Shown: positions 942 to 50,888 of the stretch, in pieces
How the letters are laid out: the number at the start of each line of letters is the position of its first letter
Numbering within the stretch: position 1 is the stretch's first letter
Assembly (NCBI GenBank): GCA_964618415.1
Contig: CAZUAT010000007.1
Coordinates: forward strand, 929-64,928
Reading direction: 5' to 3'
Source of the DNA: an uncultured Thermoanaerobaculia bacterium
GTDB taxonomy: Bacteria > Acidobacteriota > Thermoanaerobaculia > Multivoradales > JAGPDF01
Length of the DNA stretch: 64,000 nt
The notes under the pieces: generated by a model
Told to the model about the DNA's origin: nothing
What the model saw: only the letters and a program-made list of their open reading frames with translations
The model's database searches: none
Position numbers and translations under genes: made by a program

Positions 942-2309
942 TCAGTTCCCGCTCCACCCTCCCGTCGAGCCGCGTTCGAGGCCGTCGCGGAAGATGAGGG
1001 AGCTGGTGGTGCGGGTGATGCCGAACGAGGTCTCGGGGTCGACGGTCACCGGGCCCGCGGCGACCAGCCGGCCGCCCGAGAGGGTCATCGCCGCCGCGGA
1101 GTCGGAGAGGTCGGGCACCTGCTCGAAGCTCACCCGCCGCACGCCGTTGGAGTGGAAGGTCGCGTCGAGGAGGCCGGTGGGCGTCAGCCGGAAGAGGAAG
1201 AAGTCGGCGGAGCCCGGGATCGTGACGTAGATCGATCCGACGCCGATCAGCTTGCCGTCGCTCTGCACTTCCATGGCACGGATCCCGAGGCGGGCATCGA
1301 AGACGAGCTGGGCGAGGCCGTCGCCGCCGAAAGTGCCGTCGAGCACGCCGCCGCTCGACAGCCGCAGCACGCCGGCATAGTCGTCGTAGACGCCAGAGCT
1401 GAATGCCATGGCGACGTACATCGATCCCGAGCTCGGGTCGACGGCGAGCTGGTAGGGGTTGGTGTGGCCGGCCGGCAGGTCGAACGGCGCGATGCCGTCG
1501 CCGCCGCCGAACGAGGTGTCGAGCGCGCCCGAGGCGAGGAGGCGGACGATCGCGAAGCCGCCCGACTGGCCGAGCACGAGCAGCCGGCCGGCTCCGTCGA
1601 GGCGAAGATCGTAGGGGTAGGTGGCGCTCCAGGCGCCGGTGCTCGGCACCTCCCAGCCGTCGCCCGAGAAGGTCGGGTCGGGAACGCCGGCGGTCGTGAC
1701 CCGCAGCAGCATCGGGCGCGAGTCGCCGCTGTTGTCCGGACAGTCGTAGCAGTAGCCGTAGAAGACCACCTTGCCGTCGGGCTGGACGAGCGCCCCCTGC
1801 CAGCCCCAGGAGCTGGTCGCCCAGGGCAGGTCGAACACCGCGACGCCCACGTCGCCGAACGTCGGGTCGAGGTCGCCTTCCGGCGTCAGCTTCGCCAGGG
1901 CCGGCAGATCGAGAGACTCCTGATCGTCGACCTGCGAGAGCGCGGCGACCAGCAGCGAGCCGTCGGGCAGCGGCGAGAGGGCGAGGAGCTGGTCGCTGGC
2001 GCCCGGTACGGCGTCGATCGCCACCCGTCGCCGCCCCGTCGCCCCCCAGGCCAGATTGAGCGCTCCGGTGGAGGTGAGCCGGGTCACCCCCAGGTCCTGG
2101 CCGAGCGAGGTTTCGACCTCGCCGCCGACGTAGAGCGAGCCGTCGCCGAGGGCGCGCACGGCGGTCGGCTGGGCGGAGTCGCCGCCCCAGCCGATGACCT
2201 GCAGGCCGTCGGAGCTGAAGGTCGGATCGGCATAGCCGTCCTGGGCGACGGCGGGCCCGGCCAGCGTCAGTGCGGCGAGCAGGAGGAGGAAGGCGGTGGG
2301 TCGGGTCAT
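942..2309 (-). CDS. Secreted delta-60 repeat (beta-propeller) protein with C-terminal IFRDGLE tail
   Basis: Signal peptide MTRPTAFLLLLAALTLAGPAVA/QD. About 7 repeats of the type (L)D(P/T)TF(G/S)xDG ... QPDGK(I/V)V. Ends SSLIFRDGLERGSTGGWSGN. Alternative ATG at 2327. The first ~370 aa of the ORF-track entry are antisense shadow of the kinase. Confidence 0.85.
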   Translation of the reverse strand: MTRPTAFLLLLAALTLAGPAVAQDGYADPTFSSDGLQVIGWGGDSAQPTAVRALGDGSLYVGGEVETSLGQDLGVTRLTSTGALNLAWGATGRRRVAIDAVPGASDQLLALSPLPDGSLLVAALSQVDDQESLDLPALAKLTPEGDLDPTFGDVGVAVFDLPWATSSWGWQGALVQPDGKVVFYGYCYDCPDNSGDSRPMLLRVTTAGVPDPTFSGDGWEVPSTGAWSATYPYDLRLDGAGRLLVLGQSGGFAIVRLLASGALDTSFGGGDGIAPFDLPAGHTNPYQLAVDPSSGSMYVAMAFSSGVYDDYAGVLRLSSGGVLDGTFGGDGLAQLVFDARLGIRAMEVQSDGKLIGVGSIYVTIPGSADFFLFRLTPTGLLDATFHSNGVRRVSFEQVPDLSDSAAAMTLSGGRLVAAGPVTVDPETSFGITRTTSSLIFRDGLERGSTGGWSGN

Positions 2310-4473: not shown

Positions 4474-5841
4474 GTGAAGACCGTCCGCATCGCCAACGGC
4501 CAGGGATTCTGGGGGGACAACGTCGACGCGCCGCTCGAACTGCTGCGCGGCGGCCCGATCGACTATCTCGGCATGGACTACCTCGCCGAGGTGACCCTGT
4601 CGATCATGATGCGGCAGAAGCTGCGCAATCCGGCGGCCGGCTACGCGACCGACTTTATCGACTTCATTCGCCGCGCGCTGCCCGAGCTGATGGCGCGCAA
4701 CGTGCGGATCGTGACCAACGCCGGCGGCCTCAATCCGGTGGCCTGTCGGGCGAAGATCTTCGAAGTGGCCCGCGAGCTGGGCGTTACGGGCCTGCGGGTC
4801 GGAGTGGTGGAGGGCGACGACCTGCTCGGACGTCTGCCCGATCTGATCGCGCGCGGACACCGGCTCGAGAACATGGACACCGGGGACCCGATTGCCGGCG
4901 TGCTGGACCGGGTCACCTCCGCCAACGCGTACATCGGCGCGCTGCCGGTCGCCGAGGCGCTCGCCGGAGGCGCCCAGATCGTGCTCTGCGGCCGGGTCAC
5001 CGACACTGCGCTCGCCCTGGGGCCCCTGGTCGCCGAGTTCGGCTGGGCGCGTGACGACTGGGATCGGCTGGCGGCCGGCACGATCGCGGGTCACATCCTC
5101 GAGTGCGGCGCCCAGGCGAGCGGCGGCAACTTCACCCGCTTCTGGGAGGTGCCGGACCTGTGGAACGTCGGCTATCCGATCGCCGAGGTGACCGAGGACG
5201 GCAGCTTCACGGTCACCAAGCATCCGGGAACCGGCGGTAGGGTGAGCGTCGACACGGTGTCCGAGCAGCTGCTCTACGAGATGGGCGATCCGGTCGGGTA
5301 CATCACGCCGGACGTCACCGCCGACTTCACGTCGATCCAGCTCGCCGACGCCGGACCCGACCGGGTCCGCGTCACCGGTATCCGGGGACGGCCGAACACA
5401 CCGTTCCTCAAGATCTCGGCCTCGTATCTGGACGGCTGGAAAGCCGCCGGCCAGGTGACACTGGCGGCGCCGCGGGCGCTGGAGAAGGCGCGGCTGGCGG
5501 CAGAGATCGTCTGGAAGCGGCTCGAGCGCGCCGGCGTGACCTTCCCCCCGGAGGATCGGCGTGAGGAGTATGTCGGCGTGTCGGCCTGTCTGCCCGGCAT
5601 CGCGCCGGCGCCGGCCGACCCGGCGGAGGTCGTGCTGCGGCTCGCCGTGCGTGGCTCCGACCGGTCGGCGGTCGATCGGTTCGGCAAGGAGATCGCACCG
5701 CTGATCACCGCCGGCCCGCCGGGCGTGACCGGATTTGCCGGCGGCAGGCCGAAGGCGCAGGAGGTGGTCGCCTACTGGCCGGCGCTGCTGGCGCGCGAAG
5801 AGATCGAGCCCGGGCTCGAGGTTACGGTGGAGGAGGTTTAG
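4474..5841 (+). CDS. Acyclic terpene utilization AtuA-family protein (DUF1446)
   Basis: N-terminal VRIANGQGFWGD, DYLAEVT, TNAGGLNP, SANAYIGA, GRVTD, AGHILECGAQASGGN, QLLYEMGDP. GTG start 10 nt after an extended -10 TGcTAGGCT. Confidence 0.88.
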   Translation: MKTVRIANGQGFWGDNVDAPLELLRGGPIDYLGMDYLAEVTLSIMMRQKLRNPAAGYATDFIDFIRRALPELMARNVRIVTNAGGLNPVACRAKIFEVARELGVTGLRVGVVEGDDLLGRLPDLIARGHRLENMDTGDPIAGVLDRVTSANAYIGALPVAEALAGGAQIVLCGRVTDTALALGPLVAEFGWARDDWDRLAAGTIAGHILECGAQASGGNFTRFWEVPDLWNVGYPIAEVTEDGSFTVTKHPGTGGRVSVDTVSEQLLYEMGDPVGYITPDVTADFTSIQLADAGPDRVRVTGIRGRPNTPFLKISASYLDGWKAAGQVTLAAPRALEKARLAAEIVWKRLERAGVTFPPEDRREEYVGVSACLPGIAPAPADPAEVVLRLAVRGSDRSAVDRFGKEIAPLITAGPPGVTGFAGGRPKAQEVVAYWPALLAREEIEPGLEVTVEEV

Positions 5842-7025: not shown

Positions 7026-8813
7026 TCAGCGGCGGGCGGGGGGCTCGGGGACGACGGCGGTGGCCAGGGCGGTCGACAGCAGGCCGGCGACCTGGTCGGT
7101 GACCGTCACCGCGACGCGATAGGTGCCCGGCTCGAGGCGCAGCTCGGCGCGATGGGCCCAGTTGCCGGCCAGCGCCTCGGCGTGCTCGGCGTCCGGGATG
7201 CGCAGGTCGATCGCCGCCGGAGCGCCGACACGTACCGCCCCGACGTCGTCCCGCAGCGCGACGCGGACTTCGAGCCGGCCGACCCACTGTCCGCCCTGGG
7301 GCACGAGCGCCAGGCCGGCGATCGGGATGCGTACCGTCAGCGGCACGATCTGCGCGCGCCCGCGGCCACCCTCGGGCTCCGGCGCACTCAGCTCGAGAGC
7401 GACCGGGAAAGCGTGTGCAGCCGCTCCCAGCGCAGCGCCGGCTGCCACCTGCTGATCGGCCGCTTCGGCCAGGCCGAGCCGCCGGAAGCTCTGTCGGTGG
7501 CGGACGCGAACTCCCTCGCGCCGTACGCGCACCTCGACCCGGTGATCTCCGTCGCCTGCCTCCGGGCCGACCGGGAAGCCGAGAGAGTACGCTGCGGCGT
7601 GGTCGAGATCGACCTGTGCCAGGCCGGCAGAGAGATTCTCGTCGACGAACAGTCGCGTGCCGCCCGTAGCGGCGGCGAGCTGGGCGACGCTCGAAGAGGC
7701 TTCGACCAGGCTGATGTCGCGCGGAGCCGTGCGGGCCTGGCCGCGTCCCAGGCTGCCGAATTCGGCCGAGTTCTGCTCCACTGGCGGCGTGCGCGGCGTG
7801 ATCGTGTAGAACGAGATTCGCGCATTCTGGGCGGCCCGCAGCATCGCCTCGAAGCGGGTCATCACGGCCGTTCCCTCGGCCTCCATCAGGTCGACCTGGT
7901 CGAACCCGCTGCGCAGCACCTGGCCGCGCTTCTGCATCAGCAGCGCCGAGAGGAAAGCAGTGGGGGAGGCAGAATATCCGGCGGTCGCCAGCAGCACCGA
8001 CTTGTGCCCCTCGAGCGCCGCGACGGCGCCGATCCACTGCTCGAGTGCGGCGATCGACCGGCGCTGCCGGTCCAGCTCCTCGCGACCGTACTGCTCGATC
8101 TCGCGCCGCAGGCGCTGGCTTTCCTGTTCGATGAAGTTCTGCTCGCGTTCCGGGTCGACGCTGAACGAGAGGCCGAAGTTGCGCACCTCGCGCTCCAGAA
8201 GCGTGCGCTCGGAAGCGATGCGTGTCCCGCGGCCGCGCATCTCTTCCAGCTCGTCGAGGGCGGCGAGCACGGCCGAGCGGTCTCCGGTCGCGTCGGCGAG
8301 GATGCGCAGCGTGTCGGCGAATGCGGCAACCAGGATCCGGTCGTCTTCGGCGGTGCGGGTGAGCAGGTAGTCGCGGATCTCCTCGACGATCGTGTCCGAC
8401 GTCTTCCAGCTCAGCGCGCTCAGGTCGACGAAAACGAGCACCTGGCTGGGTGTCGTGGTCTCTGTGGCAGGCGGCTGGGTGGGGTCGCTCGCCGGCGCCT
8501 CTGGAGTTGTCGCCGGGGCAGCAGCCGGAGTCGCGGTCTCCTGCGTCCGCAGGGCCGGGGCGGCGAAATAGTCGATGGCGGTCGGCTGACCGTCGATCCG
8601 CAGTTCGAAATCGGAGCGGGTGAGATCGGAAACCGGGCGCCCGTTGCGGTCGACCACGATCACGTCGACGTTGACGATCTCGACTTCGACCCGGTCGGCG
8701 AACTCCGGCGGGGCGGCTGGCTGTGGCGCTGGCGCCTCCTGGGCCGCCATGGGAGCCGCCAAGGCAGGGAGCACGATGGCGGCGAGGGCGGCATGGGCGA
8801 CGAGCCGGCGCAT
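7026..8813 (-). CDS. Secreted VWA-domain protein (VWFA-related acidobacterial type), paralog 1
   Basis: Signal peptide MRRLVAHAALAAIVLPALAAPMAA/QE; FADRVEVEIVNVDVIVVDRNGRPVSDLTRSDFEL; partial MIDAS FVDLSALS; GHKSVLLATAG; LAAATGG; YSLGF; HRVEVRVRREGVRVRHR. Confidence 0.85.
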   Translation of the reverse strand: MRRLVAHAALAAIVLPALAAPMAAQEAPAPQPAAPPEFADRVEVEIVNVDVIVVDRNGRPVSDLTRSDFELRIDGQPTAIDYFAAPALRTQETATPAAAPATTPEAPASDPTQPPATETTTPSQVLVFVDLSALSWKTSDTIVEEIRDYLLTRTAEDDRILVAAFADTLRILADATGDRSAVLAALDELEEMRGRGTRIASERTLLEREVRNFGLSFSVDPEREQNFIEQESQRLRREIEQYGREELDRQRRSIAALEQWIGAVAALEGHKSVLLATAGYSASPTAFLSALLMQKRGQVLRSGFDQVDLMEAEGTAVMTRFEAMLRAAQNARISFYTITPRTPPVEQNSAEFGSLGRGQARTAPRDISLVEASSSVAQLAAATGGTRLFVDENLSAGLAQVDLDHAAAYSLGFPVGPEAGDGDHRVEVRVRREGVRVRHRQSFRRLGLAEAADQQVAAGAALGAAAHAFPVALELSAPEPEGGRGRAQIVPLTVRIPIAGLALVPQGGQWVGRLEVRVALRDDVGAVRVGAPAAIDLRIPDAEHAEALAGNWAHRAELRLEPGTYRVAVTVTDQVAGLLSTALATAVVPEPPARR

Positions 8814-16465: not shown

Positions 16466-16511
16466 GCTATCGTAGCGACGTCTCCGGTAGTCATTGCACG
16501 GAAGTCATCCG

Positions 16512-17105
16512 ATGCCCGCGGCTCCCGCTTCTCCGGCACCGCTCCGCGCGGTCGACGACCTCTCGCTGGTGCGTCAGATGGCGCGCCGCGAGCCGGCGGC
16601 CCTGGCCGAGCTCTACGATCGCTTCGGAGGGCTGCTGCTGGCCGTCATCCGACGGATTCTCGGCCCCGGCGGGGAGGTCGAAGAGGTCCTGCAGGACGCC
16701 TACCTCCAGGCCTGGATTCAGGCCGAGCGCTACGATCCCGTCCGTTCGTCGGTATCCACCTGGCTGGTGCTGATCGCCCGCAGCCGGGCGCTCGACCGCC
16801 TGCGCGCGCGTCGCAGCCGCGACCAGACGGCGGCCACTGCGGCGGCGGAGGCCGTCCACGAGACATCCGGCGAGGCCGAGTCCCACGTACTGCACAGCGA
16901 ACGTCGGCATCGGGTCCGCGAGGCACTCGCCGGCCTGCCGACCGAGCAGCGCGAGGTGCTCGAACTGGCATTTTTCGAGGGGTTGTCGCAGACCGAGATC
17001 GCCACCCGCACGGGGGCGCCGCTCGGGACCGTCAAGACACGCGCCCTGCTGGCGATGAAGAAGCTGCGCCAGGAGCTGCGCGACGACGTCCGGGAGTTGA
17101 TGTGA
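16512..17105 (+). CDS. ECF sigma-70 factor (SigK-like)
   Basis: ALAELYDRF, EEVLQDAYLQAW...RYDP, WLVLIARSRALDRLR, LELAFFEGLSQTEIA...PLGTVKTR. Alternative ATG 16494. Confidence 0.92.
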   Translation: MPAAPASPAPLRAVDDLSLVRQMARREPAALAELYDRFGGLLLAVIRRILGPGGEVEEVLQDAYLQAWIQAERYDPVRSSVSTWLVLIARSRALDRLRARRSRDQTAATAAAEAVHETSGEAESHVLHSERRHRVREALAGLPTEQREVLELAFFEGLSQTEIATRTGAPLGTVKTRALLAMKKLRQELRDDVRELM

Positions 17106-18028
17106 GCCCCGAGATCGATCCCGAAGAGACCGCCACCCTGGCCGTCCTGGCCGAACTCGGACGCATTCCGGGATCGGACGACACGCGGGTGATCTCTGGC
17201 GAGGACGAGGTCGTCGACGTGCTGCGCCGGCTCGACCTGGAGGCCATCGGTCTGCTGGCCTACGGGCTCGATGTGTCGCCTGCACCGGCGCACCTGCGCA
17301 CGCAGCTGCTCGAACGGCTGGCGGCGGACGAGACTCAGGACGTCGGACAGGCCGCCCGGGCGGCGATCACCGCCGGCCGGGAGCCGGAGGCGCCGCCGGT
17401 TGCCGAGGTTCGGACGCTGCCGGGGGCCGGCGGGCCGGTGGCCTGGGGCGGGTCGGGGGCCGTGCGGCGTCGCTCGTGGGCCCCGGCGCTCGCAGCGGTC
17501 TTCGCACTGCTGGCCATCGGCGCCGGCCTGGGCGCGTTCTGGCTTGCGTCCGAACTCTCCTCGGCGCAGGCCCGCCTGGCCCGGCTGGAGTCCGAGGTGG
17601 CGCGCATCGAGGCCGCCAGTGCGGCCGAGCGCGAGGCGACGCAGGCGAGGCTCGCCGCCTACGAGCGGCAGCGCGACTTCGTCACCAGCCGCGCCGCACT
17701 CGTCTTCGACCTGCGCCCGGCCGCCGGCGGCAGCCAGCCGACCGCGCGCGGGCGCCTCTGGGTGGCCGCCGACCACCAGCACTGGCAGCTGGACGTCGCC
17801 GGCCTGGCGCCGGCCCCTGCCGGCCGCGAGTACCAGCTCTGGTTCCTGGTCGACGGCGTACCGACCAGCGGCGGGACGTTTGCCGTCGAGGCCGGCCGGG
17901 GCGTGCTCGCCTCGGCTCAGATGCCGGCCGGCACGACCGGAGCCGTGGTCACGCTCGAACGCACCGGCGGGGTTGCGACCCCGACGACCCCGCGCCTGCT
18001 GCTGGCCGAACGCGCCGTCGATCTGTAG
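17102..18028 (+). CDS. RskA-family anti-sigma factor
   Basis: GTGA coupling to the sigma gene; PPAHLRTQLL; one transmembrane helix; coiled coil; C-terminal GLAPAPAGREYQLW ... AVVTLERTGG. Confidence 0.85.
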   Translation: MSPEIDPEETATLAVLAELGRIPGSDDTRVISGEDEVVDVLRRLDLEAIGLLAYGLDVSPAPAHLRTQLLERLAADETQDVGQAARAAITAGREPEAPPVAEVRTLPGAGGPVAWGGSGAVRRRSWAPALAAVFALLAIGAGLGAFWLASELSSAQARLARLESEVARIEAASAAEREATQARLAAYERQRDFVTSRAALVFDLRPAAGGSQPTARGRLWVAADHQHWQLDVAGLAPAPAGREYQLWFLVDGVPTSGGTFAVEAGRGVLASAQMPAGTTGAVVTLERTGGVATPTTPRLLLAERAVDL

Positions 18029-18133: not shown

Positions 18134-20308
18134 ATGCGCACCTCGCTCCTCGCCAGCACGTTCGCTCTGGCCTGGCTGTCCGCACCCGCGGTGGCGCAGG
18201 ATCTGCTCGTCTACGACAACCAGCTGCGCAGCGGGTTCGAAGACTGGAGCTGGGCAACACGCGATCTCGCCTTCGCCGGGCAGAGCCACTCCGCCCCCAA
18301 TTCGATCCGTATGGAGCCCGACGCCTGGGGTGGCCTCTACTTTCACACCAACACGCCGAACGAGGTGTCCGACTTCGTCGACCTGCGTCTCTGGGTCAAG
18401 GGTGAAGCGAGCGGCGGGCAGCAGCTTACGCTGCGCATTCAGTCGAACGGCGTCGAGCGCGCGAGCGCGCCGCTCGCCGGCTTCGTGACCGGGGGGATCT
18501 CCGGCAGCGTCTGGCGGCAGGCGGTCGTCTCGTTCGCGGCCCTCGGCCTGACCTCCGGGACCTTCAACGAGCTGATCCTGCAGGACGCGACCGGCGGCAA
18601 CCAGGCCGCGGTGCTGTTCGACGATCTGCTGTTCACCGCCGACCCGACGCCGCCGGGAGTGCTCACCGTCGCCATCGACCCGGACGCCGGGCGACGCCCG
18701 ATCTCCGATCTCGTATACGGGGTCAACTTCGCGAGCCCGGAGCAACTGGCGGATGTCGGCTACACCGTCAACCGGTGGGGCGGCAACCGGTCGACGCGAT
18801 ACAACTGGCAGCTCGACGTCGACAACAGCGCCTTCGACTGGTTCTACCAGAACTACACCGGTTCGGAGGGGCAGCCGCTGCCGGAGGGCTCGAGCTCCGA
18901 CCAGTTCATCATCGCCTCGCGGGCGGCCGGCGCCGAGGTCGTGTTGACGCTCCCGACCATGGGGCGTGTCGCGGGTCCGGATCGGCAGCGGCGGTGGAGC
19001 TTCTCGCAGGCGCTCTACGGGCCGCAGCTGCAGGACGAGTGCAGCTACTTCCCGCCGCCCGCCCCCGGCTGGTGCCAGCCCGACGCCGGCAACGGTCTGT
19101 GCAATCCGGCGGTCAACACTACCGGGCACTGTTCGGCTGACGGCAGGATCGTCGGCAACGATCCGAACGAAACCTCGATCGTGGTCGAGCCGCCGTTCGT
19201 GGAGAGCTGGCTCGACTTCGTTGCCACGCGGGTCGGGCCGCCGGACGAGGGCGGGGTGCGTTTCGTCGCGCTCGACAACGAGCCGATGCTCTGGAACTCG
19301 ACACACGCGGACCTGCATCCGGCGCCTGCCACCTACGACGAGGTCTGGCAGCGCGGACGCGACGTGGCGGCCGCGGTCAAGGCGGGGCACGAGGGGATTT
19401 CCGTTCTCGGCCCCGATACCTGGGGTTGGTGCGATCTGTGGACCTCGGCAGCGGACGCTCCCGGCGACTGCACGGACGGGCCGGACCGCCAGGCGCACGG
19501 CGGCGTACCGTTCGTGCGCTGGTACCTCGGCCAGGTCTGCGCCCACCAGCAGCAGACGGGCGTGCGGCTGGTCGACTACGTGGACGTGCACTACTACCCG
19601 CAGAGCGGCGAGGCGTTCGGCGGCGAGGAGTACGCCGCCATCCGCCTGGATTCGATCCGCGAACTCGACTCGCCGACGTACGTTTCGCAGTCGTGGATCG
19701 CTGCGAACGTGCGGCTGATTCCCCGCCTGCGCGACTGGATCGCTGCCGCCTGTCCGGGCACGCGGATCGCGATTACCGAGTACGCGTGGGGCGCGGACGA
19801 CGCGCCGTCGGCCGCTCTGGCGCAGGCCGAAGTGCTGGCCATTTTCGGGCGCGAGGGGGTGGGCCTGGCAACCCGCTGGGTGGTGCCGGAAAGCGGGACG
19901 CGGACCGAAGACGCATTCCGGTTCTATCTCAACTACGACGGCGCCGGAGCGCGAGTGCGCGGCGACAGCGTCGCCGCGACCTCGTCCGACATCGACGAGG
20001 TCGGCGCCTACGCGGTGCGCGGGACCGACGACCGGCTCTTCGTCCTCCTGTTCAACAAGGAGACCTCGCCGCGTGATGTCGAGGTGAACGTTGCAGGGAC
20101 CGTGGTCGGCCCGGCGACCTTGTGGCGGTTCACTCCGACGCAGCCACTCGGCCCGGCCGGCACGCTGCCGGTGTCCGGCGCCGGTTTCGCCGCCACGCTG
20201 CCGGCGAGGTCTGCCACGCTCGCCGTCGTGCAGCTGGAATCCGGCCTGGTGTTCCGCGACGGCTTCGAGTCGGGCTCGACCGGCGCCTGGTCGCTGGTCG
20301 CCCCCTGA
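18134..20308 (+). CDS. Secreted GH44-family endoglucanase/xyloglucanase with N-terminal CBM-like domain and C-terminal FRDGFE tail
   Basis: Signal peptide ...APAVA/QD; RRPISDLVYGVN, NRWGGNRSTRYNW, acid/base LDNEPMLWNSTHADLHP, DYVDVHYYPQ, nucleophile ITEYAWG; ends LVFRDGFESGSTGAWSLVAP; GGAGG SD. Confidence 0.88.
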   Translation: MRTSLLASTFALAWLSAPAVAQDLLVYDNQLRSGFEDWSWATRDLAFAGQSHSAPNSIRMEPDAWGGLYFHTNTPNEVSDFVDLRLWVKGEASGGQQLTLRIQSNGVERASAPLAGFVTGGISGSVWRQAVVSFAALGLTSGTFNELILQDATGGNQAAVLFDDLLFTADPTPPGVLTVAIDPDAGRRPISDLVYGVNFASPEQLADVGYTVNRWGGNRSTRYNWQLDVDNSAFDWFYQNYTGSEGQPLPEGSSSDQFIIASRAAGAEVVLTLPTMGRVAGPDRQRRWSFSQALYGPQLQDECSYFPPPAPGWCQPDAGNGLCNPAVNTTGHCSADGRIVGNDPNETSIVVEPPFVESWLDFVATRVGPPDEGGVRFVALDNEPMLWNSTHADLHPAPATYDEVWQRGRDVAAAVKAGHEGISVLGPDTWGWCDLWTSAADAPGDCTDGPDRQAHGGVPFVRWYLGQVCAHQQQTGVRLVDYVDVHYYPQSGEAFGGEEYAAIRLDSIRELDSPTYVSQSWIAANVRLIPRLRDWIAAACPGTRIAITEYAWGADDAPSAALAQAEVLAIFGREGVGLATRWVVPESGTRTEDAFRFYLNYDGAGARVRGDSVAATSSDIDEVGAYAVRGTDDRLFVLLFNKETSPRDVEVNVAGTVVGPATLWRFTPTQPLGPAGTLPVSGAGFAATLPARSATLAVVQLESGLVFRDGFESGSTGAWSLVAP

Positions 20309-27731: not shown

Positions 27732-28514
27732 GTGAACTCGATGACCTTTCGCCTCTCGCGCGCTCTCCCGTCGGCCGTCGCCCTGCTGGTGGCCGGTGTC
27801 CTCCTCGCACCGGCCGCCGGACGGGCCGCCGGCCCGGCAGCACCGCCCGATCCCGAAGTGGCGGGGCTCAGCGCTACGGCGCGGCTGCACGCGCTGACCG
27901 AGCGGGTGCGCTGGGAACAGGCCCGTCTGGAGTCGATGGCAGCCCACTTCGTCCAGGAGCGCCAGAGCGAGTTTCTCCTCGCCCCGGAGCGCTCGACCGG
28001 CACGTTCTCGTACGCCCGCCCGGACCGCGTGCGTTGGGAGTACGAGCAGCCGCGGCCGATCTCTCTGGTCGTGAGCGGCAACGAGATGCTGACCTGGTTT
28101 CGTGACCTGGGCCGCGCCGAGCGCGTCAAGATCGGCTCGGTCTCGCGCCAGGTTTTCCACTATCTCAGCGCCAGCGGCTCGCTGGAGTCGCTGCTGTCGT
28201 ACTTTTCGGTGAGTTACTCGCCTCCCGCCCCCGGCGAGCCGTACGTGCTCCTGCTGACCCCTCGCTACGGCCGCATCGAGCGGCGGCTGAAGTCGATGAC
28301 GCTGTGGATCGACCGCGAGAGCTACCTGCCGGTTCGGATGCGCTACGTCGAGCCCAACGGGGACACGACGGAGTACCGGCTCGAGAAGATCGTGCGCAAC
28401 GGACCGATGCCGGCGGACCGGTTCGACCTGCAGCTGCCGGCGACCGTCGAGGTGCGTGAGGTCGAACTCGGCGACGGGGATGCCGGCGGCCCGGCGACCC
28501 TCGGCAAGCGGTGA
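27732..28514 (+). CDS. lolA: LolA-like outer-membrane lipoprotein carrier protein
   Basis: Signal peptide; AHFVQER, STGTFSYARPDRVRWEYEQP, LVVSGN..LTW, LWIDRESYLPVRM..VEPNGDTTEY. Confidence 0.75.
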   Translation: MNSMTFRLSRALPSAVALLVAGVLLAPAAGRAAGPAAPPDPEVAGLSATARLHALTERVRWEQARLESMAAHFVQERQSEFLLAPERSTGTFSYARPDRVRWEYEQPRPISLVVSGNEMLTWFRDLGRAERVKIGSVSRQVFHYLSASGSLESLLSYFSVSYSPPAPGEPYVLLLTPRYGRIERRLKSMTLWIDRESYLPVRMRYVEPNGDTTEYRLEKIVRNGPMPADRFDLQLPATVEVREVELGDGDAGGPATLGKR

Positions 28515-29829: not shown

Positions 29830-30156
29830 ATGCCGTTCTTCCTACTCCAGGCGTCCGCGCCGGGTTCGGCGCCGTCGGCGCTGGTCCAGCTGGTCCCGGT
29901 GCTGCTGATCTTCGGGATCTTCTACTTCCTGCTGCTGGCGCCGATGCGCAAGCGCCAGAAGGCCCACCAGGCGATGCTCGGCCAGCTCAAGCGGGGCGAC
30001 AAGGTGGTGACCAACGGCGGATTGCTCGGCGAGATCGCGGCGGTCGAAGACAAGGTCGTCCATCTCAAGCTGGCCGACAACGTCCGCGTGCGGGTGGCCA
30101 AGTCGGCGGTCGCCGGCATCGAGGGCGAGCCCGGCAGCGAAGGGGGCAAGGGATGA
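29830..30156 (+). CDS. yajC: Preprotein translocase subunit YajC
   Basis: IFYFLLLAPMRKRQK, LKRGDKVVTNGGLLGEI; tgt-yajC-secD-secF synteny. Confidence 0.95.
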   Translation: MPFFLLQASAPGSAPSALVQLVPVLLIFGIFYFLLLAPMRKRQKAHQAMLGQLKRGDKVVTNGGLLGEIAAVEDKVVHLKLADNVRVRVAKSAVAGIEGEPGSEGGKG

Positions 30157-31736
30157 ACCGCAGCATTCTCTGGCGGGGAGTGCTGATTTTCGGCCTCGCC
30201 GGGCTGGCCATCTGGGCCGCCTATCCGCCCCAGAAGAAGATCAATCTCGGCCTCGACCTGCAGGGCGGCATCCACCTCGAGCTCCAGGTGCGCACCCAGG
30301 ACGCGGTGCGGGCGGAGACCGACCGCGACATGGAGATTCTGCGTCGGGAAGCGACCGGCGCCGGAATCGTCGGCCTTTCGACGAACCGGCTCACCGACAC
30401 CCGCTTCGAAGTCACCGGGCTCGCCGAGTCCGACCAGAGCCGCTTCGACGAGGTGACGCGCAAGTGGCTGGGCAACGCCTGGAACGCGGAGAAGGGCGTC
30501 GGCGGACGGGTGGTGTTCAACATGGCGCCGGCCAACGAGCGCGCCATCCGCGACCTGTCGGTCAATCAGGCGCAGCAGACCATCCGCAACCGTATCGACC
30601 AGTTCGGCGTCGCCGAACCGGTCATCGCGCGCCAGGGCGCCACCAGCGACCGCATCGTCGTTCAACTCCCGGGCGTGGACGATCCGGAGCGCGTGAAGCG
30701 ACTGATCAAGAACACGGCGTTTCTCGAGTTCCGGCTCTGCGACTTTCCGTGGACGGGAGCCGGCGCTGGATCACGCGACGACATCCTCGCCCACTACGGC
30801 GGGCGCCTGCCGGACAACATCGAGATCCTGCCCGAGGTACGGCGCGACTCGTCGACCGGCCAGGTGCTCTCGCAGGCTTTCTGGGCGGTCGAGAAGCGGC
30901 AGGTGATCACCGGCCGCGACCTCAAGCACGCCAGCCCCTCGCAGGGACAGTTCGGGCAGCCGGTCGTCTCGTTCAACCTGAACGTGGACGGCGCGCGGGC
31001 GTTCGGCGAGGCCACCGGCGCGAACATCGGCCGCGGTCTGGCAATCGTGCTCGACGGAACGATCGTCTCGGCGCCGCAGATCAACGGTCGGATCACCGAT
31101 TCGGGCGTCATCGAGGGCAACTTCACGCAGCAGGAGGTGCAGGACCTCGTCACCACGCTGCGCTCCGGCGCGCTGCCGGCGGGCATCGACTACGTCGAGG
31201 ACAGGACGGTCGGCCCGTCGCTCGGACAGGATTCGATCGATTCGAGCATCAAGGCGGGTTTGCTGTCGATGATCTGCATCGTGCTGTCGCTGCTGATCGT
31301 GTACCGGCTGTCCGGCCTCAACGCTCTGTTCGGTCTGGCGCTCAACGTGCTGCTGCTGTTCGGAGCACTGGCCTATTTCGACGCCACGCTTACGCTGCCC
31401 GGCACCGCCGGCATCGTGCTGTCCATCGCCATGGCGGTGGACGCCAACGTGCTGATCTTCGAGCGGATCAAGGAGGAGCTGCGAGCCGGCAAGACGCTCC
31501 GGTCAGCGATCGATGCCGGGTTCCAGAATGCGCTGTCGTCGATCCTCGACTCCAACATCACGACGCTGATCGCGGCCCTTTTCCTGTTCCAGTTCGGCAC
31601 CGGACCGATTCGCGGCTTCGCGGTCACGCTCTCAATCGGCATCCTCGGCACGCTCTTCTGCGCGATCTACGTCAGCCGCTGGCTCTTCGAGGTGACGCAG
31701 ACCCTGCGCCCGAACGCCGGGAAACTTTCCATCTGA
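30153..31736 (+). CDS. secD: Protein translocase subunit SecD
   Basis: LGLDLQGG, IRNRIDQFGVAEP, IVVQLPG, AIVLDG, LRSGALP, VGPSLG, LTLPG.AG, AVDANVLIFERIKEE. Confidence 0.97.
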   Translation: MNRSILWRGVLIFGLAGLAIWAAYPPQKKINLGLDLQGGIHLELQVRTQDAVRAETDRDMEILRREATGAGIVGLSTNRLTDTRFEVTGLAESDQSRFDEVTRKWLGNAWNAEKGVGGRVVFNMAPANERAIRDLSVNQAQQTIRNRIDQFGVAEPVIARQGATSDRIVVQLPGVDDPERVKRLIKNTAFLEFRLCDFPWTGAGAGSRDDILAHYGGRLPDNIEILPEVRRDSSTGQVLSQAFWAVEKRQVITGRDLKHASPSQGQFGQPVVSFNLNVDGARAFGEATGANIGRGLAIVLDGTIVSAPQINGRITDSGVIEGNFTQQEVQDLVTTLRSGALPAGIDYVEDRTVGPSLGQDSIDSSIKAGLLSMICIVLSLLIVYRLSGLNALFGLALNVLLLFGALAYFDATLTLPGTAGIVLSIAMAVDANVLIFERIKEELRAGKTLRSAIDAGFQNALSSILDSNITTLIAALFLFQFGTGPIRGFAVTLSIGILGTLFCAIYVSRWLFEVTQTLRPNAGKLSI

Positions 31737-31767
31737 CGGGCGCCAGGCGACCCGGGGAGCCCTATCG

Positions 31768-32973
31768 ATGGACATTCTGACCAACACCAAGATCGACTTC
31801 ATGAAGTATCGCCGCTTCTGGCTGGCCTTCTCCTTCGTGGTGATGGCAATCGGCGCGGTGGCGATCTTCTTCCTCGGTCACCTCAACATGGGCATCGATT
31901 TCGCCGGCGGAACGCAGCTGACGCTGAAGTTTGCCGAGCGGCCGGATGTCGAGCAGCTGCGCTCCGTGGTGACCGGCGCTGGCGTGGGCGACGCGCAGCT
32001 CCAGCGGTTCGGGGATCCGGCGAGCAACGAGGTGATCATCGGCACGCCGATCCTCGAGGGCAAACCGGAGGGCAGCGCCGCGGAGGTCCTGGCCGCGATC
32101 GACGCGCGGTACAACGCCGGGGCCGACAGCCGGTCGGACATCAACCGGATCGGCACGCTGTCACTGGCCGACCTGCTGGCCGCGACGGATCCCGACGGCG
32201 TCGGACCCGAGAGCGCAGCCGGGCACTACACGGGAGTGGCCGAGTCGGTGATGGCCGAGCGCAAGCGGCTCGGTATCTTCGTCTCCTGGGACGAAGTGGC
32301 GCGAGCGGCGGGACTCTCTCCGCGGGCCCTGGAGGCCATCAAGGCTCAGGGCAGGATCGGCAGCTACTCGGTGCTCGGCAGCGGCAACGTGAGCCCGCAG
32401 GTCGGATCGGAGATCCGTCAGCGCGGCATCCTCGCGGTAGTCGGCGCGATCCTGGGCATGCTGCTCTACATCTGGATCCGGTTCGAGCTTCGGTTCGGGA
32501 TCGGCGCGACGATGTCGATTCTGCACGACGTGCTCATCACCCTCGGCATCTATGCCTTCATGGGTTACGAATTCAACCTCACCACGGTCGCCGCGTTCCT
32601 GACGTTGATCGGCTACTCGGTGAACGACACGGTCGTCACCTTCGACCGCGTCCGCGAGAACATGCGCAAGACCCGCGGCGGCGACCTGCTGACGCTGATC
32701 AACCGCAGTCTCAACGAAATGCTGGCCCGGACCCTGTTGACCGGCGGCACGACGGTCCTCGCCGCGCTGATGCTCTGGCTGTTCGGTGGGGAGGCAATTC
32801 GCGGCTTCGCCTTCATCATTCTGGTCGGCATCATCGTCGGCACCTATTCGTCGATCTACATCGCCAGCCCGTTCGCGATCCTCTGGGAGGAGTGGTTCGG
32901 GCCCGGCGGGCGCTTCCATCGCGACAAGGGCAAGCCGCAGCGCGCGGGTGCGGCTCCGGCTGCCTCCCGCTGA
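31768..32973 (+). CDS. secF: Protein translocase subunit SecF with an extra periplasmic HhH-like insertion
   Basis: GIDFAGGT, VSPQVG, IRFE, HDVLIT, IGYSVNDTVVTFDRVREN, RTLLT, GTYSSIYIA; ~70-aa insertion at about 32137-32352. Confidence 0.95.
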   Translation: MDILTNTKIDFMKYRRFWLAFSFVVMAIGAVAIFFLGHLNMGIDFAGGTQLTLKFAERPDVEQLRSVVTGAGVGDAQLQRFGDPASNEVIIGTPILEGKPEGSAAEVLAAIDARYNAGADSRSDINRIGTLSLADLLAATDPDGVGPESAAGHYTGVAESVMAERKRLGIFVSWDEVARAAGLSPRALEAIKAQGRIGSYSVLGSGNVSPQVGSEIRQRGILAVVGAILGMLLYIWIRFELRFGIGATMSILHDVLITLGIYAFMGYEFNLTTVAAFLTLIGYSVNDTVVTFDRVRENMRKTRGGDLLTLINRSLNEMLARTLLTGGTTVLAALMLWLFGGEAIRGFAFIILVGIIVGTYSSIYIASPFAILWEEWFGPGGRFHRDKGKPQRAGAAPAASR

Positions 32974-35795: not shown

Positions 35796-36851
35796 GTGCT
35801 GTTCTCGCGCTCGAAGGGTCTGGTTGGACTCGATATCGGCAGTTCGGCGCTCAAACTGGTCGAGCTCCACGAGAAGAAGGGCGAGTATTGGCTCCAGCGC
35901 CTGGGGGTCGAGCCCCTGTCGCCGGAGGCGATCGTCGACGGCTCGATCATGGACTCCGCGCTCGTGGTCGATGCCCTGAACCGGCTGATCGCCGCGACCG
36001 GGGTCAAGACCCCGAGTTTCGCCACCTCGCTGTCCGGTCACTCCGTCATCATCAAGAAGATCCAGGTGCCGGCGATGGCCTCGGAGGATCTCTCGGAGCA
36101 GATCCGGTGGGAGGCCGAGCAGTACATCCCGTTCGACATCAATGACGTCCGTCTCGACTACATCGTCCTCTCGGAGGGCGAGCCGGGTCGCGACAACATG
36201 GACGTGCTGCTGGTCGCCGTCAAGCGGGACAAGGTCAACGACTACGTCTCGGTGATCGGCCAGGCCGGCCGCGTCGCGACCCTGGTGGACGTCGACGCGT
36301 TCGCGATCCAGAACGCCTACGAGGTCAACTACGACCTCGATCACTCGAAGGTCGTGGCGCTGGTCAACATGGGCGCCAGCGTGACCAACATCAACATTCT
36401 CGTGCGCGGCCAGACCGCGTTCTGGCGCGACATCTCCTCGGCGGGCAACGGCTTCACGGAGGCGCTGCAGCGTGAGTTCAACCTGTCGTTCGAGCAGGCC
36501 GAGCGCCTCAAGCGCGGTCAGCCGGTCGACCGGTTCCAGCCCTCCGACGCCCGTGCGGTGCTCGATGGCGTGTCGGGCGAGCTCGCGACCGAGATCCAGA
36601 AGACTTTCGACTTCTTCGCCGCGACCTCCTCGGAGGGACCGGTCGACGAGATCGTGCTGTCGGGCGGCTGCGCGCTGACCCCGAACCTGCAGCAGGTGCT
36701 GCGCGAGCGGTTCGGAGTGCCGATCGAAGTGTTGGATCCGCTGCGCCGGATCCACTACCGCGACGGCGACTTCGACCGCGACTGGCTGCGCTCGATCTCG
36801 CCGATGCTGGCGGTTGCGGTGGGGCTGGCTGTCCGGAAGGCGGGAGGCTGA
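35796..36851 (+). CDS. pilM: Type IV pilus assembly protein PilM
   Basis: LVGLDIGSSALKLVEL, VIIKKI, EAEQYIPFDIN.V.LDY, VLLVAVK, DVDAFA, LVNMGAS, IVLSGGCA. Confidence 0.95.
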   Translation: MLFSRSKGLVGLDIGSSALKLVELHEKKGEYWLQRLGVEPLSPEAIVDGSIMDSALVVDALNRLIAATGVKTPSFATSLSGHSVIIKKIQVPAMASEDLSEQIRWEAEQYIPFDINDVRLDYIVLSEGEPGRDNMDVLLVAVKRDKVNDYVSVIGQAGRVATLVDVDAFAIQNAYEVNYDLDHSKVVALVNMGASVTNINILVRGQTAFWRDISSAGNGFTEALQREFNLSFEQAERLKRGQPVDRFQPSDARAVLDGVSGELATEIQKTFDFFAATSSEGPVDEIVLSGGCALTPNLQQVLRERFGVPIEVLDPLRRIHYRDGDFDRDWLRSISPMLAVAVGLAVRKAGG

Positions 36852-36855
36852 GCTC

Positions 36856-37491
36856 ATGCTCAAGATCAATCTGCTCGCCGAGGGAAAGCGCCCGGTCGTC
36901 GCTCGCAAGAAGGCGGCGACTTCGGGCGGCGGCGCCGGTAGCAGCGGCGACCTCGGGAACTACCTGCTCATTGCTGGGATCGTGCTCGGCCTGTTGGTGA
37001 CGGCCGGCTGGTGGCTGATGCTCAGCAACCGGATCTCTAACAAGCAGGAACAGATCGCGGAAGCGAAGCGCGAGGTCGAGGAGCTCAAGGCCGTCATCAA
37101 GGAGGTCGAGGAGTACAAGCGCAAGAAGGCCGACCTCGAGCGCAAGATTCAGATCATCAACGATCTGAAGGCCAATCAGCGCGGTCCCGTCCAGATCATG
37201 GACGAGGTCTCCAAGGGCCTGCCGGAGCTGCTGTGGCTGACCAGCCTCGAGACCACCAACACGAACGTGAGCCTGCGCGGATCGGCGTTCAACATGTCGG
37301 CCGTGGCCAACCTGATCGACAACCTCGACCGGGTGGAGGCTTTCGGCGAGCCGATTCTCCAGGACGCCACGCAGCGAGCGGGCCGTGGTGCGCGGACCGA
37401 GGTCTACGACTTCCGGCTCTCCTTCCCGTACTCATTCAAGGCGCCTGCGGCGGCGCCGGCCGACGGGGCCGGCGCTCCGGCGGCGCGCTGA
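36856..37491 (+). CDS. pilN: Type IV pilus assembly protein PilN
   Basis: MLKINLL, transmembrane helix, coiled coil, LPELLWLTSL; operon position. Confidence 0.92.
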   Translation: MLKINLLAEGKRPVVARKKAATSGGGAGSSGDLGNYLLIAGIVLGLLVTAGWWLMLSNRISNKQEQIAEAKREVEELKAVIKEVEEYKRKKADLERKIQIINDLKANQRGPVQIMDEVSKGLPELLWLTSLETTNTNVSLRGSAFNMSAVANLIDNLDRVEAFGEPILQDATQRAGRGARTEVYDFRLSFPYSFKAPAAAPADGAGAPAAR

Positions 37492-37504
37492 TCGGAGACC
37501 GACG

Positions 37505-38122
37505 ATGGCATTTCAGACCGGACTCGAAGGCAAGCCCGCCTGGCAAGGCGGCCTGGTCGGCCTGCTCGTCGCGGCGCTCCTGGTCGGCGGTACGTACTGG
37601 CTGAAGTTCAAGGGACAGTACGAGCAGCTCGAGCGGATGGAGACCGAGTACCAGGGCCTGCAGCAGACGATCGCCGAAGGCCGCGCCGCCAAGGCCAAGC
37701 TCCCGCAGTTCCGCGAGGAGGTTCGCCGACTCGAGCTCGAGCTCGAGAAGCTGCTGCGCATCCTTCCCGCACGGCGCAACACCCCCGAGCTGCTGCGGCG
37801 CATCCGCCAGTTGACCGAACAGGGTAACTTCGACCTTCTCAAGTTCACGCCGGGCAACTTCATCGACCGCGAGTTCTACAGCGAGTGGCCGATTACCGTC
37901 CGCCTGAACGGGACGTACCACAACCTGGCGCTCTTCTTCGACCGCATCGGCCGGTTCTCCCGCATCATCAACATCGAGAACCTCAAGGTCTCGACGCAGG
38001 CGAAGTCCGCCAAGGGGCACTCGATCACCGCCTCGTTCATCGCCAAGACGTTCGTCTACAAGGAGCCGGCTCCCGACGCCGAGCCCCAGACGGCGCCGGC
38101 GGGAGGTAGGGGTAACCGATGA
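37505..38122 (+). CDS. pilO: Type IV pilus assembly protein PilO
   Basis: Transmembrane helix, coiled coil, LLRILP, FYSEWPI...L.GTYHNLA.FFDRIGRFSRIINI. Confidence 0.93.
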   Translation: MAFQTGLEGKPAWQGGLVGLLVAALLVGGTYWLKFKGQYEQLERMETEYQGLQQTIAEGRAAKAKLPQFREEVRRLELELEKLLRILPARRNTPELLRRIRQLTEQGNFDLLKFTPGNFIDREFYSEWPITVRLNGTYHNLALFFDRIGRFSRIINIENLKVSTQAKSAKGHSITASFIAKTFVYKEPAPDAEPQTAPAGGRGNR

Positions 38123-38661
38123 GACCGGACCGATTCTTGAGCCGTATCGCGCTCGCCTTGCTCGCAGGCGCGGTGTTGACGACCGGCGCGGCACGCGCCC
38201 AGGACGACGGCACCGACACCACCGCGCCGGTCGACCCGACCGCGGCGGGTGACGCCGCCATCGTGGACGCCGGAGCCCGGATCGACGAGATCCTCGAGGG
38301 CGAGGAGGCGGTGCTCCAGGGCCAGGCGTACAGCTACGACCCCGGCGACCGTCGCGACCCGTTCCGGTCGCTCGAGACCGCGCAGACGCGGCCGGAGATT
38401 CAGGGCGAGCTGCCGGAGGGCGTACCGGGACTGCTGATCGACGAGGTCGATCTGACCGGCATCTACCGCACCTCGAGCGGTTACATCGCCCAGCTGGTGT
38501 CCCCCAACAAGGATCGCAGCTACCTCGTGCGCGTCGGGGATCAGCTCTACGACGGCGACGTGGTCCGGATCAGTCAGATGGAAGTCGTGTTCAAACAGAT
38601 CGTCAACGACCCGACGGTGCTCAAGCCGTATCGGGAAGTGGTCAAGAAGCTCAGCCCTTAG
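38119..38661 (+). CDS. pilP: Type IV pilus assembly protein PilP
   Basis: YSYDPGDRRDPFRSL, LTGI, YLVRVGDQLYDG.V..I; ATGA overlap with pilO. Confidence 0.85.
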   Translation: MRPDRFLSRIALALLAGAVLTTGAARAQDDGTDTTAPVDPTAAGDAAIVDAGARIDEILEGEEAVLQGQAYSYDPGDRRDPFRSLETAQTRPEIQGELPEGVPGLLIDEVDLTGIYRTSSGYIAQLVSPNKDRSYLVRVGDQLYDGDVVRISQMEVVFKQIVNDPTVLKPYREVVKKLSP

Positions 38662-38667
38662 ACGGGG

Positions 38668-41190: not shown

Positions 41191-41212
41191 GCGACCCGGG
41201 GAGGAGCCAGAT

Positions 41213-41758
41213 ATGAACCGCTTCGTCAAGTTGCTCGCTCTTACGCTCGTCGCTGTGGTCGGACTCGGCTGCGAGAGCCGCACCGACAAGGTGGACGCCG
41301 GAGGCGTCATCCTCTCGGTCACCGACTTCGACGGTCTGCCGATCTCGATCAGTGCCTCGGGTTCGTTCCCGCTCGTTCAGGTGGAAACGATCACGGTCAC
41401 CAACGTCACGCGGAACAATTCACAGCCGACCAGTGACCTGATGAACGTGGAGATCCACAGCTACGAGGTATCGTTTACCCGTGAGGACACGGGGACGCGG
41501 GTCCCGCCGGTGCTGGTCAATCACATCTTCGGCATTGCGCCGGCCAACGGTACCTTCACGCTCGACGGTGGGCCGATCCTGCGTACCGACCAGTTCAACC
41601 ACGCGCCGATCAAGGATCTCATCGACTACGGCCGCGACACGGAGACCAACACGCAGGTCGTCCGGCTCAAGGTCGCGATCCAGTTCTTCGGTCGCACGCT
41701 CAGTGGCGACCCGGTCGCATCCGCGCCCGCATACTTCACACTCGAAGTCTTTCCCTGA
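41213..41758 (+). CDS. Hypothetical beta-rich lipoprotein immediately downstream of pilQ
   Basis: Lipobox VGLG-C; GGAGGAG SD; alternating beta pattern; ends FFGRTLSGDPV...YFTLEVFP. Confidence 0.8.
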   Translation: MNRFVKLLALTLVAVVGLGCESRTDKVDAGGVILSVTDFDGLPISISASGSFPLVQVETITVTNVTRNNSQPTSDLMNVEIHSYEVSFTREDTGTRVPPVLVNHIFGIAPANGTFTLDGGPILRTDQFNHAPIKDLIDYGRDTETNTQVVRLKVAIQFFGRTLSGDPVASAPAYFTLEVFP

Positions 41759-41779
41759 GGTCGCGGGAGGCGAACGGAT

Positions 41780-50850: not shown

Positions 50851-50888
50851 CAGTTCCACCGCCGCGGCCGCCGGCTGTTGTGCATCAT
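50850..50888 (-). other. Candidate 12-aa mini-ORF MMHNSRRPRRWN bridging ccmE and ccmF
   Basis: AAGGAG SD 5 nt before ATG 50888; ATGA overlap with the ccmE stop; TGATG overlap with the ccmF start. Confidence 0.35.

Follow-up and report, generated by a model that had tools for sequence, protein, structure and literature searches.

Among the described systems for C-terminal sorting of exported proteins, the closest to the element reported here are PEP-CTERM/exosortase, MYXO-CTERM/myxosortase and GlyGly-CTERM/rhombosortase, the signals of which combine a motif, a transmembrane (TM) helix and a basic cluster. Like these signals, the tail described in this study is a short C-terminal element which occurs on many unrelated Sec-exported families and is expanded in particular lineages, but it lacks all three of their parts and is acidic. 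It was found in a stretch of 64,000 nucleotides (hereafter the window) from an uncultured Thermoanaerobaculia bacterium of the phylum Acidobacteriota (assembly GCA_964618415.1, contig CAZUAT010000007.1, positions 929 to 64,928), where it terminates two secreted proteins, a delta-60 repeat beta-propeller and a glycoside hydrolase of family 44 (GH44). Acidobacteriota are among the most abundant bacteria in soils and sediments and are thought to live largely by extracellular hydrolysis; to our knowledge, the way in which they export and retain their exoenzymes is poorly known.

A common tail on two secreted proteins

The propeller gene is located on the minus strand at 942-2309 (ATG at 2309, stop codon at 944-942) and encodes a protein of 455 residues matching PF17164 (2.6e-25) and TIGR02608 (4.1e-51). 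The GH44 gene, an open reading frame (ORF) on the plus strand at 18134-20308, encodes 724 residues and matches PF12891 (1.8e-57) and, as an EpsB-like protein, NF041873 (3.7e-89), the latter below the equivalog cut-off of the model. The two bodies fall into unrelated Pfam and NCBIfam families; their C-termini read SSLIFRDGLERGSTGGWSGN and SGLVFRDGFESGSTGAWSLVAP, respectively, and are identical at 12 of 16 aligned residues, as had been pointed out in an earlier, sequence-only reading of the window. The tail module of the delta-60 protein (942-998, minus strand), LIFRDGLERGSTGGWSGN plus stop, spans exactly the stretch from a Leu codon (998-996) to the stop codon and is an 18-residue variant ending in W-x-G-N, while that of the GH44 protein (20246-20308, plus strand), LVFRDGFESGSTGAWSLVAP plus stop, is of the canonical 20-residue form which ends in Pro. 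Neither tail contains a hydrophobic helix or a basic cluster. The same earlier reading had noted Sec-type signal peptides with a common PAVA/QD junction, and both can indeed be read from the translations: MTRPTAFLLLLAALTLAGPAVA followed by QD in the delta-60 protein (2244-2309, minus strand) and MRTSLLASTFALAWLSAPAVA followed by QD in the GH44 protein (18134-18196, plus strand). Cleavage is predicted at this junction in both proteins, for the delta-60 protein on the basis of the AxA rule.

When the two proteins were compared by BLASTP, a single significant local alignment was obtained (E 3e-6), the conserved block of which is the tail at its C-terminal end. At the DNA level only 33 of 48 bases of the tails are identical, and different codons are used at five of the 12 identical residues; thus, it is the protein that is conserved, not a recently duplicated piece of DNA. 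Two sites in the window, both of them the tails, were hit by a degenerate DNA pattern of the motif (expectation 0.00 from 100 shuffles), and a six-frame scan of the 64 kb did not reveal a further copy of the motif in a real gene.

The tail is retained in orthologues of both proteins at 34-50% identity. Orthologues of the delta-60 protein, mostly from metagenome-assembled genomes (MAGs) of Thermoanaerobaculia and other Acidobacteriota, keep [LI][IV]F-x-DGFE-R-[GA]-S-x-x-[GA]-W-x-G-N at the stop codon down to about 34% identity, and the nearly invariant columns of the entire 63-sequence alignment include F440, D442, G443, F444 and W452. Some relatives carry endings of half the length, such as LIFSNGFE, LIFTDGFAH or LIFANGCGD, the source of the last naming Rhodanobacteraceae, and distant proteins stop at the last propeller strand (FALARYLGN) without a tail. 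Similarly, most of the 120 best GH44 orthologues have the 20-residue tail with terminal Pro, in which F707 does not vary among 78 aligned orthologues and D709, E712 and W719 hardly do. This pattern, with the tail as well conserved as residues of the bodies, indicates strong purifying selection on the tail in the orthologues of both window proteins.

Structural modeling with AlphaFold2, using orthologue alignments for both proteins, yielded mean predicted local distance difference test (pLDDT) values of 89.9 for the propeller and 90.4 for the GH44 protein. In the propeller model the last strand comprises residues 426-434, confidence declines along a short helix at 438-442, pLDDT drops below 50 at 445-455, and the signal peptide appears as an N-terminal helix of low pLDDT. 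In the GH44 model no strand follows the last one at 693-701, and the means of ten-residue blocks fall from 70 to 53 to 37. The tails of both proteins make no contacts and are left unplaced. The models would therefore put the tail outside either predicted fold, in keeping with a peptide that takes on order when bound to a partner, although this is weak evidence when taken alone.

Two further segments of the window proteins bear some likeness to the tail. Residues 217-232 of the delta-60 protein (DGWEVPSTGAWSATYP; 1614-1661, minus strand) resemble the GH44 tail at 10 of 16 positions; as a second tail copy this segment was rejected, since the match is not significant (E 0.13), falls partly on the beginning of a delta-60 repeat and is unconserved in orthologues, so that it is probably due to chance. 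The mature GH44 N-terminus (18200-18260, plus strand) begins with DLLVYDNQLRSGFEDWSW, a conserved first strand of the N-terminal CBM-like domain in which Y27, D28, G34, W38 and W40 are invariant or nearly so, forming a loosely tail-like pattern with other spacing.

Distribution and architecture of the tail

The observation made on the two window proteins is confirmed and reaches far beyond the window. One genome per species (GTDB) was scanned with a DNA pattern for two hydrophobic residues followed by F-x-[DN]-G-F-E-x6-W, which returned at least 130 sites in at least 120 stretches; the taxonomic picture is that of a sample. Among the matches listed, a stop codon is reached within 30 residues at 89 of 130 motif sites; 36 further sites are internal and five run off the locus. 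At 49 of the 80 sites which end ORFs of at least 100 residues the distance from motif start to stop is exactly 20 residues. In these 49 canonical tails, positions left free by the pattern are conserved as well, namely S9, G10 (47/49), D/N11, T12, S13, A14, S16 and P20 (45/49). The resulting consensus is L-[LI]-F-A-D-G-F-E-S-G-D-T-S-A-W-S-A-T-V-P at the stop codon or, generalised, [LV][LI]F-x-D-G-F-E-S-G-D-T-S-A-W-S-x-x-x-P, polar and acidic past position 3; the GH44 tail agrees with it fully in its 20 residues, Thr12 and Pro20, and the delta-60 tail is the shorter variant. In an independent test, a 20-position profile built from the tails of the two window families only was run against 1.84 billion cluster representatives and matched 1859 of them at E <= 0.001; among the best 150 of these 1859 matches, 81 carry the motif at the C-terminus, nearly all as LIFADGFESGDTSAWSATVP, and the remainder are multi-copy internal matches.

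Among the matches listed, the 20-residue C-terminal form belongs almost wholly to Acidobacteriota (Thermoanaerobaculia/-ales, Holophagae, Candidatus Sulfomarinibacteraceae and unclassified Acidobacteriota), with a few examples from MAGs of Myxococcota or "Deltaproteobacteria". A form of 8-9 residues, terminating with F-x-N/D-G-F-E, occurs in Lysobacterales (Rudaea, Aquimonas), and the internal form was found in Chloroflexota, Actinomycetota, Armatimonadota, Vicinamibacteria, Victivallaceae and Archaea. The mention of similar tails in Acidobacteria and Xanthomonadales in the sequence-only reading was accurate in that the tail is common in the former and shortened in the latter. Many MAGs in this sample have several tail-bearing contigs, and two tail genes were found together in at least four 8-kb loci, which suggests a copy number per genome in the tens, in line with the two copies within the 64 kb of the window. 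A search for a cultured carrier via cluster membership and the encoding contigs returned metagenome records only. In the literature searched by motif strings and by wording on sorting signals or CTERM in Acidobacteria the tail motif is not mentioned, an absence limited to the texts searched.

The carrier proteins are highly diverse. Across 76 carriers, 69 Pfam and 82 NCBIfam families were detected, all extracytoplasmic in type, with the largest Pfam family shared by at most 12 and no NCBIfam model by more than seven of them; the notion of a modular tag appended to diverse exoproteins is thereby supported. The Pfam families include FG-GAP, beta-helix, subtilase S8, M28, M4, M14, C25, sortilin/BNR, CarboxypepD_reg, MAM, DUF11, PKD and Calx-beta. 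Several NCBIfam models which match the carrier bodies are named after other means of attachment or export: myxosortase-dependent and rhombosortase-dependent M36 peptidases (seven each), choice-of-anchor Q/J/B proteins, a T9SS-dependent M6-like protein (T9SS, type IX secretion system) and an LPXTG-anchored serine peptidase; ExeM/NucH was matched as well.

Orthologues of the GH44 protein diverge after a common strand ending in LPARSATL. Most continue into the 20-residue tail, and those from Xanthomonadales end with FADGFE or FANGFEN. At the same position, an orthologue from Myxococcota (P0220) carries a Cys, a TM helix and RRRGRRG, that is, a MYXO-CTERM-like anchor, another (P0222) a TM helix with a basic anchor, and two (P0204, P0215) a dockerin (PF00404); P0225 has nothing after the strand, and other orthologues have other domains. 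The occupation of the tail position by the anchors of P0220 and P0222 agrees with the family names given above. Because homologues carry known anchors in the place of the tail, an anchoring or sorting role is favoured, and this choice-of-anchor swap is the best comparative evidence that the tail may act as a terminal anchoring, docking or sorting element.

The module also occurs at positions other than the C-terminus. In P0309 the complete 20-residue unit, including the Pro (end ATVP), directly follows the signal peptide, and in two Acidobacteriota MAGs (L031, L096) it starts two to three residues past the lipobox Cys and leads into a Pro-rich linker. Tandem modules are present in five proteins (P0271, P0263, P0258, P0290 and P0299), and in P0348 the module is located between immunoglobulin-like repeats. 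In a Holophagae MAG (L113, about 5380-5530) the module does not form a free end: a TM helix and a terminal RLKER come directly after the canonical tail LLFGDGFETGDTSAWSTVIP. A further match of the tail profile, the database protein P0293, is an anti-sigma factor of 198 residues with a zf-HC2-like N-terminus and a TM helix, the extracytoplasmic part of which consists, past a short linker, mainly of two tail modules, LVFADGFESGDLNSWS and the terminal LLFSDGFESGSLHGWSASSL. This architecture suggests periplasmic sensing or binding of the module, and P0293 may represent a regulatory readout of the same pathway. The non-terminal copies argue against a sortase-like C-terminal cleavage signal, and the overall pattern favours an autonomous recognition module with a preference for chain ends and for sites beside membrane anchors.

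Each of the internal motif sites marks the N-terminal start of a jelly-roll domain of about 190-210 residues, preceded by a Pro/Thr linker or a signal peptide. Polysacc_lyase (PF14099) matches these domains from profile position 1, mostly weakly, with one match of 35.2 bits exceeding the gathering cut-off, and weak matches to CBM_4_9 (PF02018, profile positions 4-41) and Laminin_G_3 were obtained as well. When compared to the PDB, the tail profile matched best to the first strand of the calnexin lectin domain, FADSFDRGTLSGW. The tails themselves contain the N-terminal strand motif of the jelly rolls, F-x-[DN]-G-F-E-x-G-x(4)-W, but the chain stops 18-20 residues past the motif start and does not form a complete beta-sandwich of about 130-210 residues. 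By its sequence, the tail hence corresponds to the first beta-strand pair of a ConA-like fold. Three positions separate tails from domain starts: position 12 is Thr in 45 of 77 tails, as opposed to Leu or Phe in 24 of 33 domain starts, position 11 is mostly Asp in the former and Asn in the latter, and position 20 is Pro in 47 tails and in only two of the 33 domain starts. These differences mark the tails as a distinct class and not a decaying remnant. The objection that the tail might be left over from a larger domain, which the earlier reading itself had raised, is justified in so far as the motif equals the first strand of ConA-like domains; it fails on the point that the tails form a separate subclass of fixed length.

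Nine loci from Chloroflexota MAGs (L009, L019, L021, L032, L068, L070, L093, L106 and L112) contain arrays of a jelly-roll domain of about 200 residues which starts with LIFADGFESGNLSAWS..TDGGDLSVS, has RYRARFYFDPNS in its middle and ends with YFDAFESRR..YIGP. The copies are separated by Pro/Thr linkers. The domain is apparently unannotated; its only Pfam matches are weak ones to PF14099 and PF02018.

Possible roles of the tail and the search for a partner

The data show the tail to be a self-contained acidic and aromatic module of about 20 residues, of fixed length and strongly conserved, which is carried by diverse extracytoplasmic proteins. The reading that we favour, with moderate confidence, is that of a tag bound in trans for retention at the surface or for sorting. 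After Sec export, the tail would stay exposed and flexible, and a partner in the envelope would bind it, probably by beta-strand or beta-hairpin augmentation, a mode suggested by the agreement of the tag's sequence with the two strands that open a ConA-like jelly roll. Binding to the partner would then lead to retention or attachment at the cell surface or to routing across the outer membrane; we infer the dedicated partner, its mode of binding and this outcome from the comparisons given above. Spelled out in full, the proposal becomes a rather unlikely one: a hitherto unrecognised tag-and-receptor system which Acidobacteriota would share in related form with Myxococcota and, reduced to one strand, with Xanthomonadales. 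In this system the detached first beta-hairpin of a ConA-like fold would be captured by strand complementation on a dedicated outer-membrane or surface receptor or on a component of a secretion system.

Several points weigh against binding in trans by a dedicated partner. An all-against-all BLAST comparison of the neighbours around 120 loci yielded as recurrent neighbours only Ser/Thr kinases with TPR, PP2C phosphatases and histidine kinases, the tag genes being dispersed. A free C-terminus is not obligatory for the module, which would also fit a plain binding module. The low pLDDT of the tail in a monomer model is weak evidence for its exposure. A crude, home-made predictor found signal peptides in 42 of 59 carriers with complete 5' ends (71%), compared to 46 of 99 ORFs taken as controls from these loci (46%), and several carriers missed by it visibly have one; the enrichment proposed as a check is present, but it is modest and, with such a predictor, carries little weight. 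With regard to the C-terminal tag of the sequence-only reading, the location at the extreme C-terminus and the fixed length hold for most copies, but not for those which are N-terminal, tandem, internal or placed ahead of a TM anchor. The dedicated sorting or anchoring system that it had proposed is plausible in view of the choice-of-anchor swap, but neither the clustering of neighbours nor a model of the jelly-roll body brought up a receptor or other machinery. The latter search used a hidden Markov model (HMM) of the body of one subfamily minus its first 20 residues and, in about 0.9 Mb, hit only loci already holding a complete domain; neither the window nor the Thermoanaerobaculia loci contained a strand-less body detectable with this one-subfamily model. 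A LamG_3 protein adjacent to a GH44 orthologue (L122) was considered as a receptor and rejected as an ordinary complete domain.

The window contains further genes for envelope functions. A pilM-pilN-pilO-pilP-pilQ cluster is located at 35796-43392 (plus strand), its secretin comprising AMIN, STN, Secretin_N and Secretin domains, and is followed by two small predicted lipoproteins without a Pfam match and a Big_1/Invasin_D3/PKD protein; nothing in the window ties this secretin to the tail. Directly upstream of the GH44 gene, at 16494-18028 (plus strand), a gene for an extracytoplasmic function (ECF) sigma factor (16494-17105) precedes an ORF without a Pfam match which was read as an anti-sigma factor, and the GH44 glycanase may be under ECF control. 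The GH44 gene also adjoins a nucleotide-sugar gene. A set of envelope housekeeping genes at 27732-28514 (plus), 30153-32973 (plus) and 48595-53342 (minus strand) includes a LolA-like carrier recognised by Pfam and, according to their translations, probable SecD and SecF and a probable cytochrome c maturation cluster, with no sign of a link to the tail. Two VWA-like proteins (7026-8813 and 62553-63917, both minus strand) share the C-terminus GLLSTALAT; as they are 54% identical over 454 residues, this was put down to ordinary paralogy and rejected as a second shared tail.

Other explanations account for parts of these data. An adhesive or ligand-binding mini-module without dedicated protein machinery, a possible if doubtful alternative, would be a beta-hairpin with an aromatic (F3, F7, W15) and an acidic face (D5, E8, D11), which would bind the cell's own exopolysaccharide or lipopolysaccharide, perhaps via Ca2+ or Mg2+, or self-associate, and so keep exoenzymes near the cell. 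The independence of position, the capacity for tandem arrangement and the resemblance to the start of CBM_4_9, polysaccharide-lyase-type and calnexin lectin folds would all suit such a module, as would the many glycanases, proteases and adhesin-like repeat proteins among the carriers and, in the window, an EpsB-like GH44 protein encoded next to a nucleotide-sugar gene. Yet a carbohydrate-binding jelly roll needs far more than 20 residues, the elements that replace the tail in orthologues, membrane anchors and dockerins, are directed towards membranes or proteins, and the 8-residue form of Xanthomonadales keeps one strand only. The idea that the tail is left over from the first strands of a lost ConA-like or CBM domain, or resembles them by chance, and has no function of its own can draw on the identity of its pattern with the N-terminal strand of the 190-210-residue jelly rolls of Chloroflexota, Actinomycetota, Armatimonadota and Archaea and on the same pattern at the start of the calnexin lectin domain. 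It is largely refuted and very improbable in view of the exact length of 20 residues with terminal Pro, the conservation across orthologues of 34-50% identity and 1859 cluster representatives with significant matches, the systematic differences to domain starts at positions 12 and 20, and the synonymous divergence of the window tails at identical amino acids.

We consider an intramolecular or quality-control role unlikely, in which the tail would cap the C-terminus, assist folding, act as an auto-inhibitory pro-peptide, hinder carboxypeptidases or serve as a degron or stress signal for a periplasmic PDZ protease, for example DegS or Prc. Secreted proteases often have C-terminal pro-peptides, the terminal Pro in 45 of 49 canonical tails would block exopeptidases, and the anti-sigma factor P0293 with its two tail modules recalls the sensing of C-terminal peptides by DegS/RseA. 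Against this, a cap or chaperone specific for a fold is hard to reconcile with the same peptide following 69 unrelated folds, AlphaFold2 docks the tail on neither window protein, and N-terminal and internal copies do not suit a C-terminal degron. A signal for secretion across the outer membrane rather than a retention tag, recognised for example by a GspC-type PDZ domain or the secretin of a type II secretion system (T2SS), overlaps with binding in trans and seems quite unlikely as an explanation in its own right. It would agree with the Sec signal peptides and extracellular-type domains of the carriers and with the fact that every taxon in which the C-terminal form was seen is diderm; the homologous families with MYXO-CTERM or GlyGly-CTERM anchors are reported to be T2SS cargo. 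However, T2SS signals are generally conformational, the sole secretin of the window belongs to the pilMNOPQ cluster, and the tail is present on only two of the signal-peptide proteins read in the window.

The tail provides a simple sequence marker for a large part of the Acidobacteriota exoproteome, by which thousands of hypothetical proteins (at least 1859 clusters at 50% identity and E <= 0.001) could be annotated as one sorting class, and it makes the search for a cognate machinery directly testable. The 8-residue form belongs to a lineage, the Xanthomonadales, which has cultured and genetically tractable members. Should a receptor exist, the tail would constitute a new kind of terminal sorting or docking signal without a membrane anchor, and it could serve as a compact tag for display or capture.

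Comparison with known sorting and docking systems

No Pfam or NCBIfam model matched the tail, either in searches with the whole proteins, with the tail peptides at E values up to 10 or in the tally of the 76 carriers, and the tail is absent from Pfam-A and NCBIfam 20.0. Short models can be detected in this way, since PF07589 was found on a PEP-CTERM protein (L030) in the same run. Neither LIFRDGLERGSTGGWSGN nor LVFRDGFESGSTGAWSLVAP contains the hydrophobic run of a PEP-CTERM-type TM helix, and in place of a basic C-terminal cluster the tails end in W-S-x-x-x-P or W-x-G-N; PF07589, TIGR02595 and their relatives did not match the whole proteins or the tail peptides at E values up to 10. An LPXTG motif with TM helix and basic tail is likewise absent from both window sequences, and in contrast to sortase-type signals the module is also found N-terminally or in tandem. 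The distinction from PEP-CTERM, LPXTG and the C-terminal domain (CTD) of T9SS cargo, drawn earlier from the sequence, was upheld in that TM helix, basic cluster and HMM match were all lacking.

The T9SS CTD (Por_Secre_tail) resembles the tail as a C-terminal element without a TM helix which is found on diverse exoproteins and is, or in the case of the tail would be, recognised in trans, and M6-like proteins with homologous bodies depend on T9SS elsewhere. It differs in being a folded beta-sandwich of 70-100 residues, found in Bacteroidota and removed by PorU, whereas the tail comprises 18-20 residues and is predicted to be unstructured; no match of PF18962 or TIGR04183 to the window proteins or tail peptides was obtained. 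Dockerins share with the tail the nature of a small, modular and occasionally duplicated non-catalytic end module on glycanases and proteases, but have about 70 residues with two calcium-binding loop-helix motifs in place of 20 residues with a beta-strand pattern, and PF00404 matched neither window protein nor tail. With the starts of ConA-like domains (CBM_4_9, Polysacc_lyase and the calnexin lectin domain) the tail has F-x-D-x-F-E-x-G-x-x-x-x-W in common; it is set apart as a stand-alone unit in which the remaining 180 or so residues are missing, Thr replaces Leu or Phe at position 12 and a Pro forms the end.

As conceptual models for the recognition of a 20-residue tag, C-terminal peptides read by beta-augmentation (the beta-signal of outer-membrane proteins recognised by BamA, the YxF peptide bound by the DegS PDZ domain and the TonB box) and split-domain tags such as SpyTag exemplify short, aromatic-containing terminal peptides that become ordered on a partner; they differ from the tail in composition, have known partners and show no sequence similarity to it, so that the likeness is conceptual only. 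If the tail is indeed a tag recognised by a receptor, it would represent a means of surface display or secretion which operates without a membrane anchor and differs from sortase-type systems, from T9SS and from dockerins.

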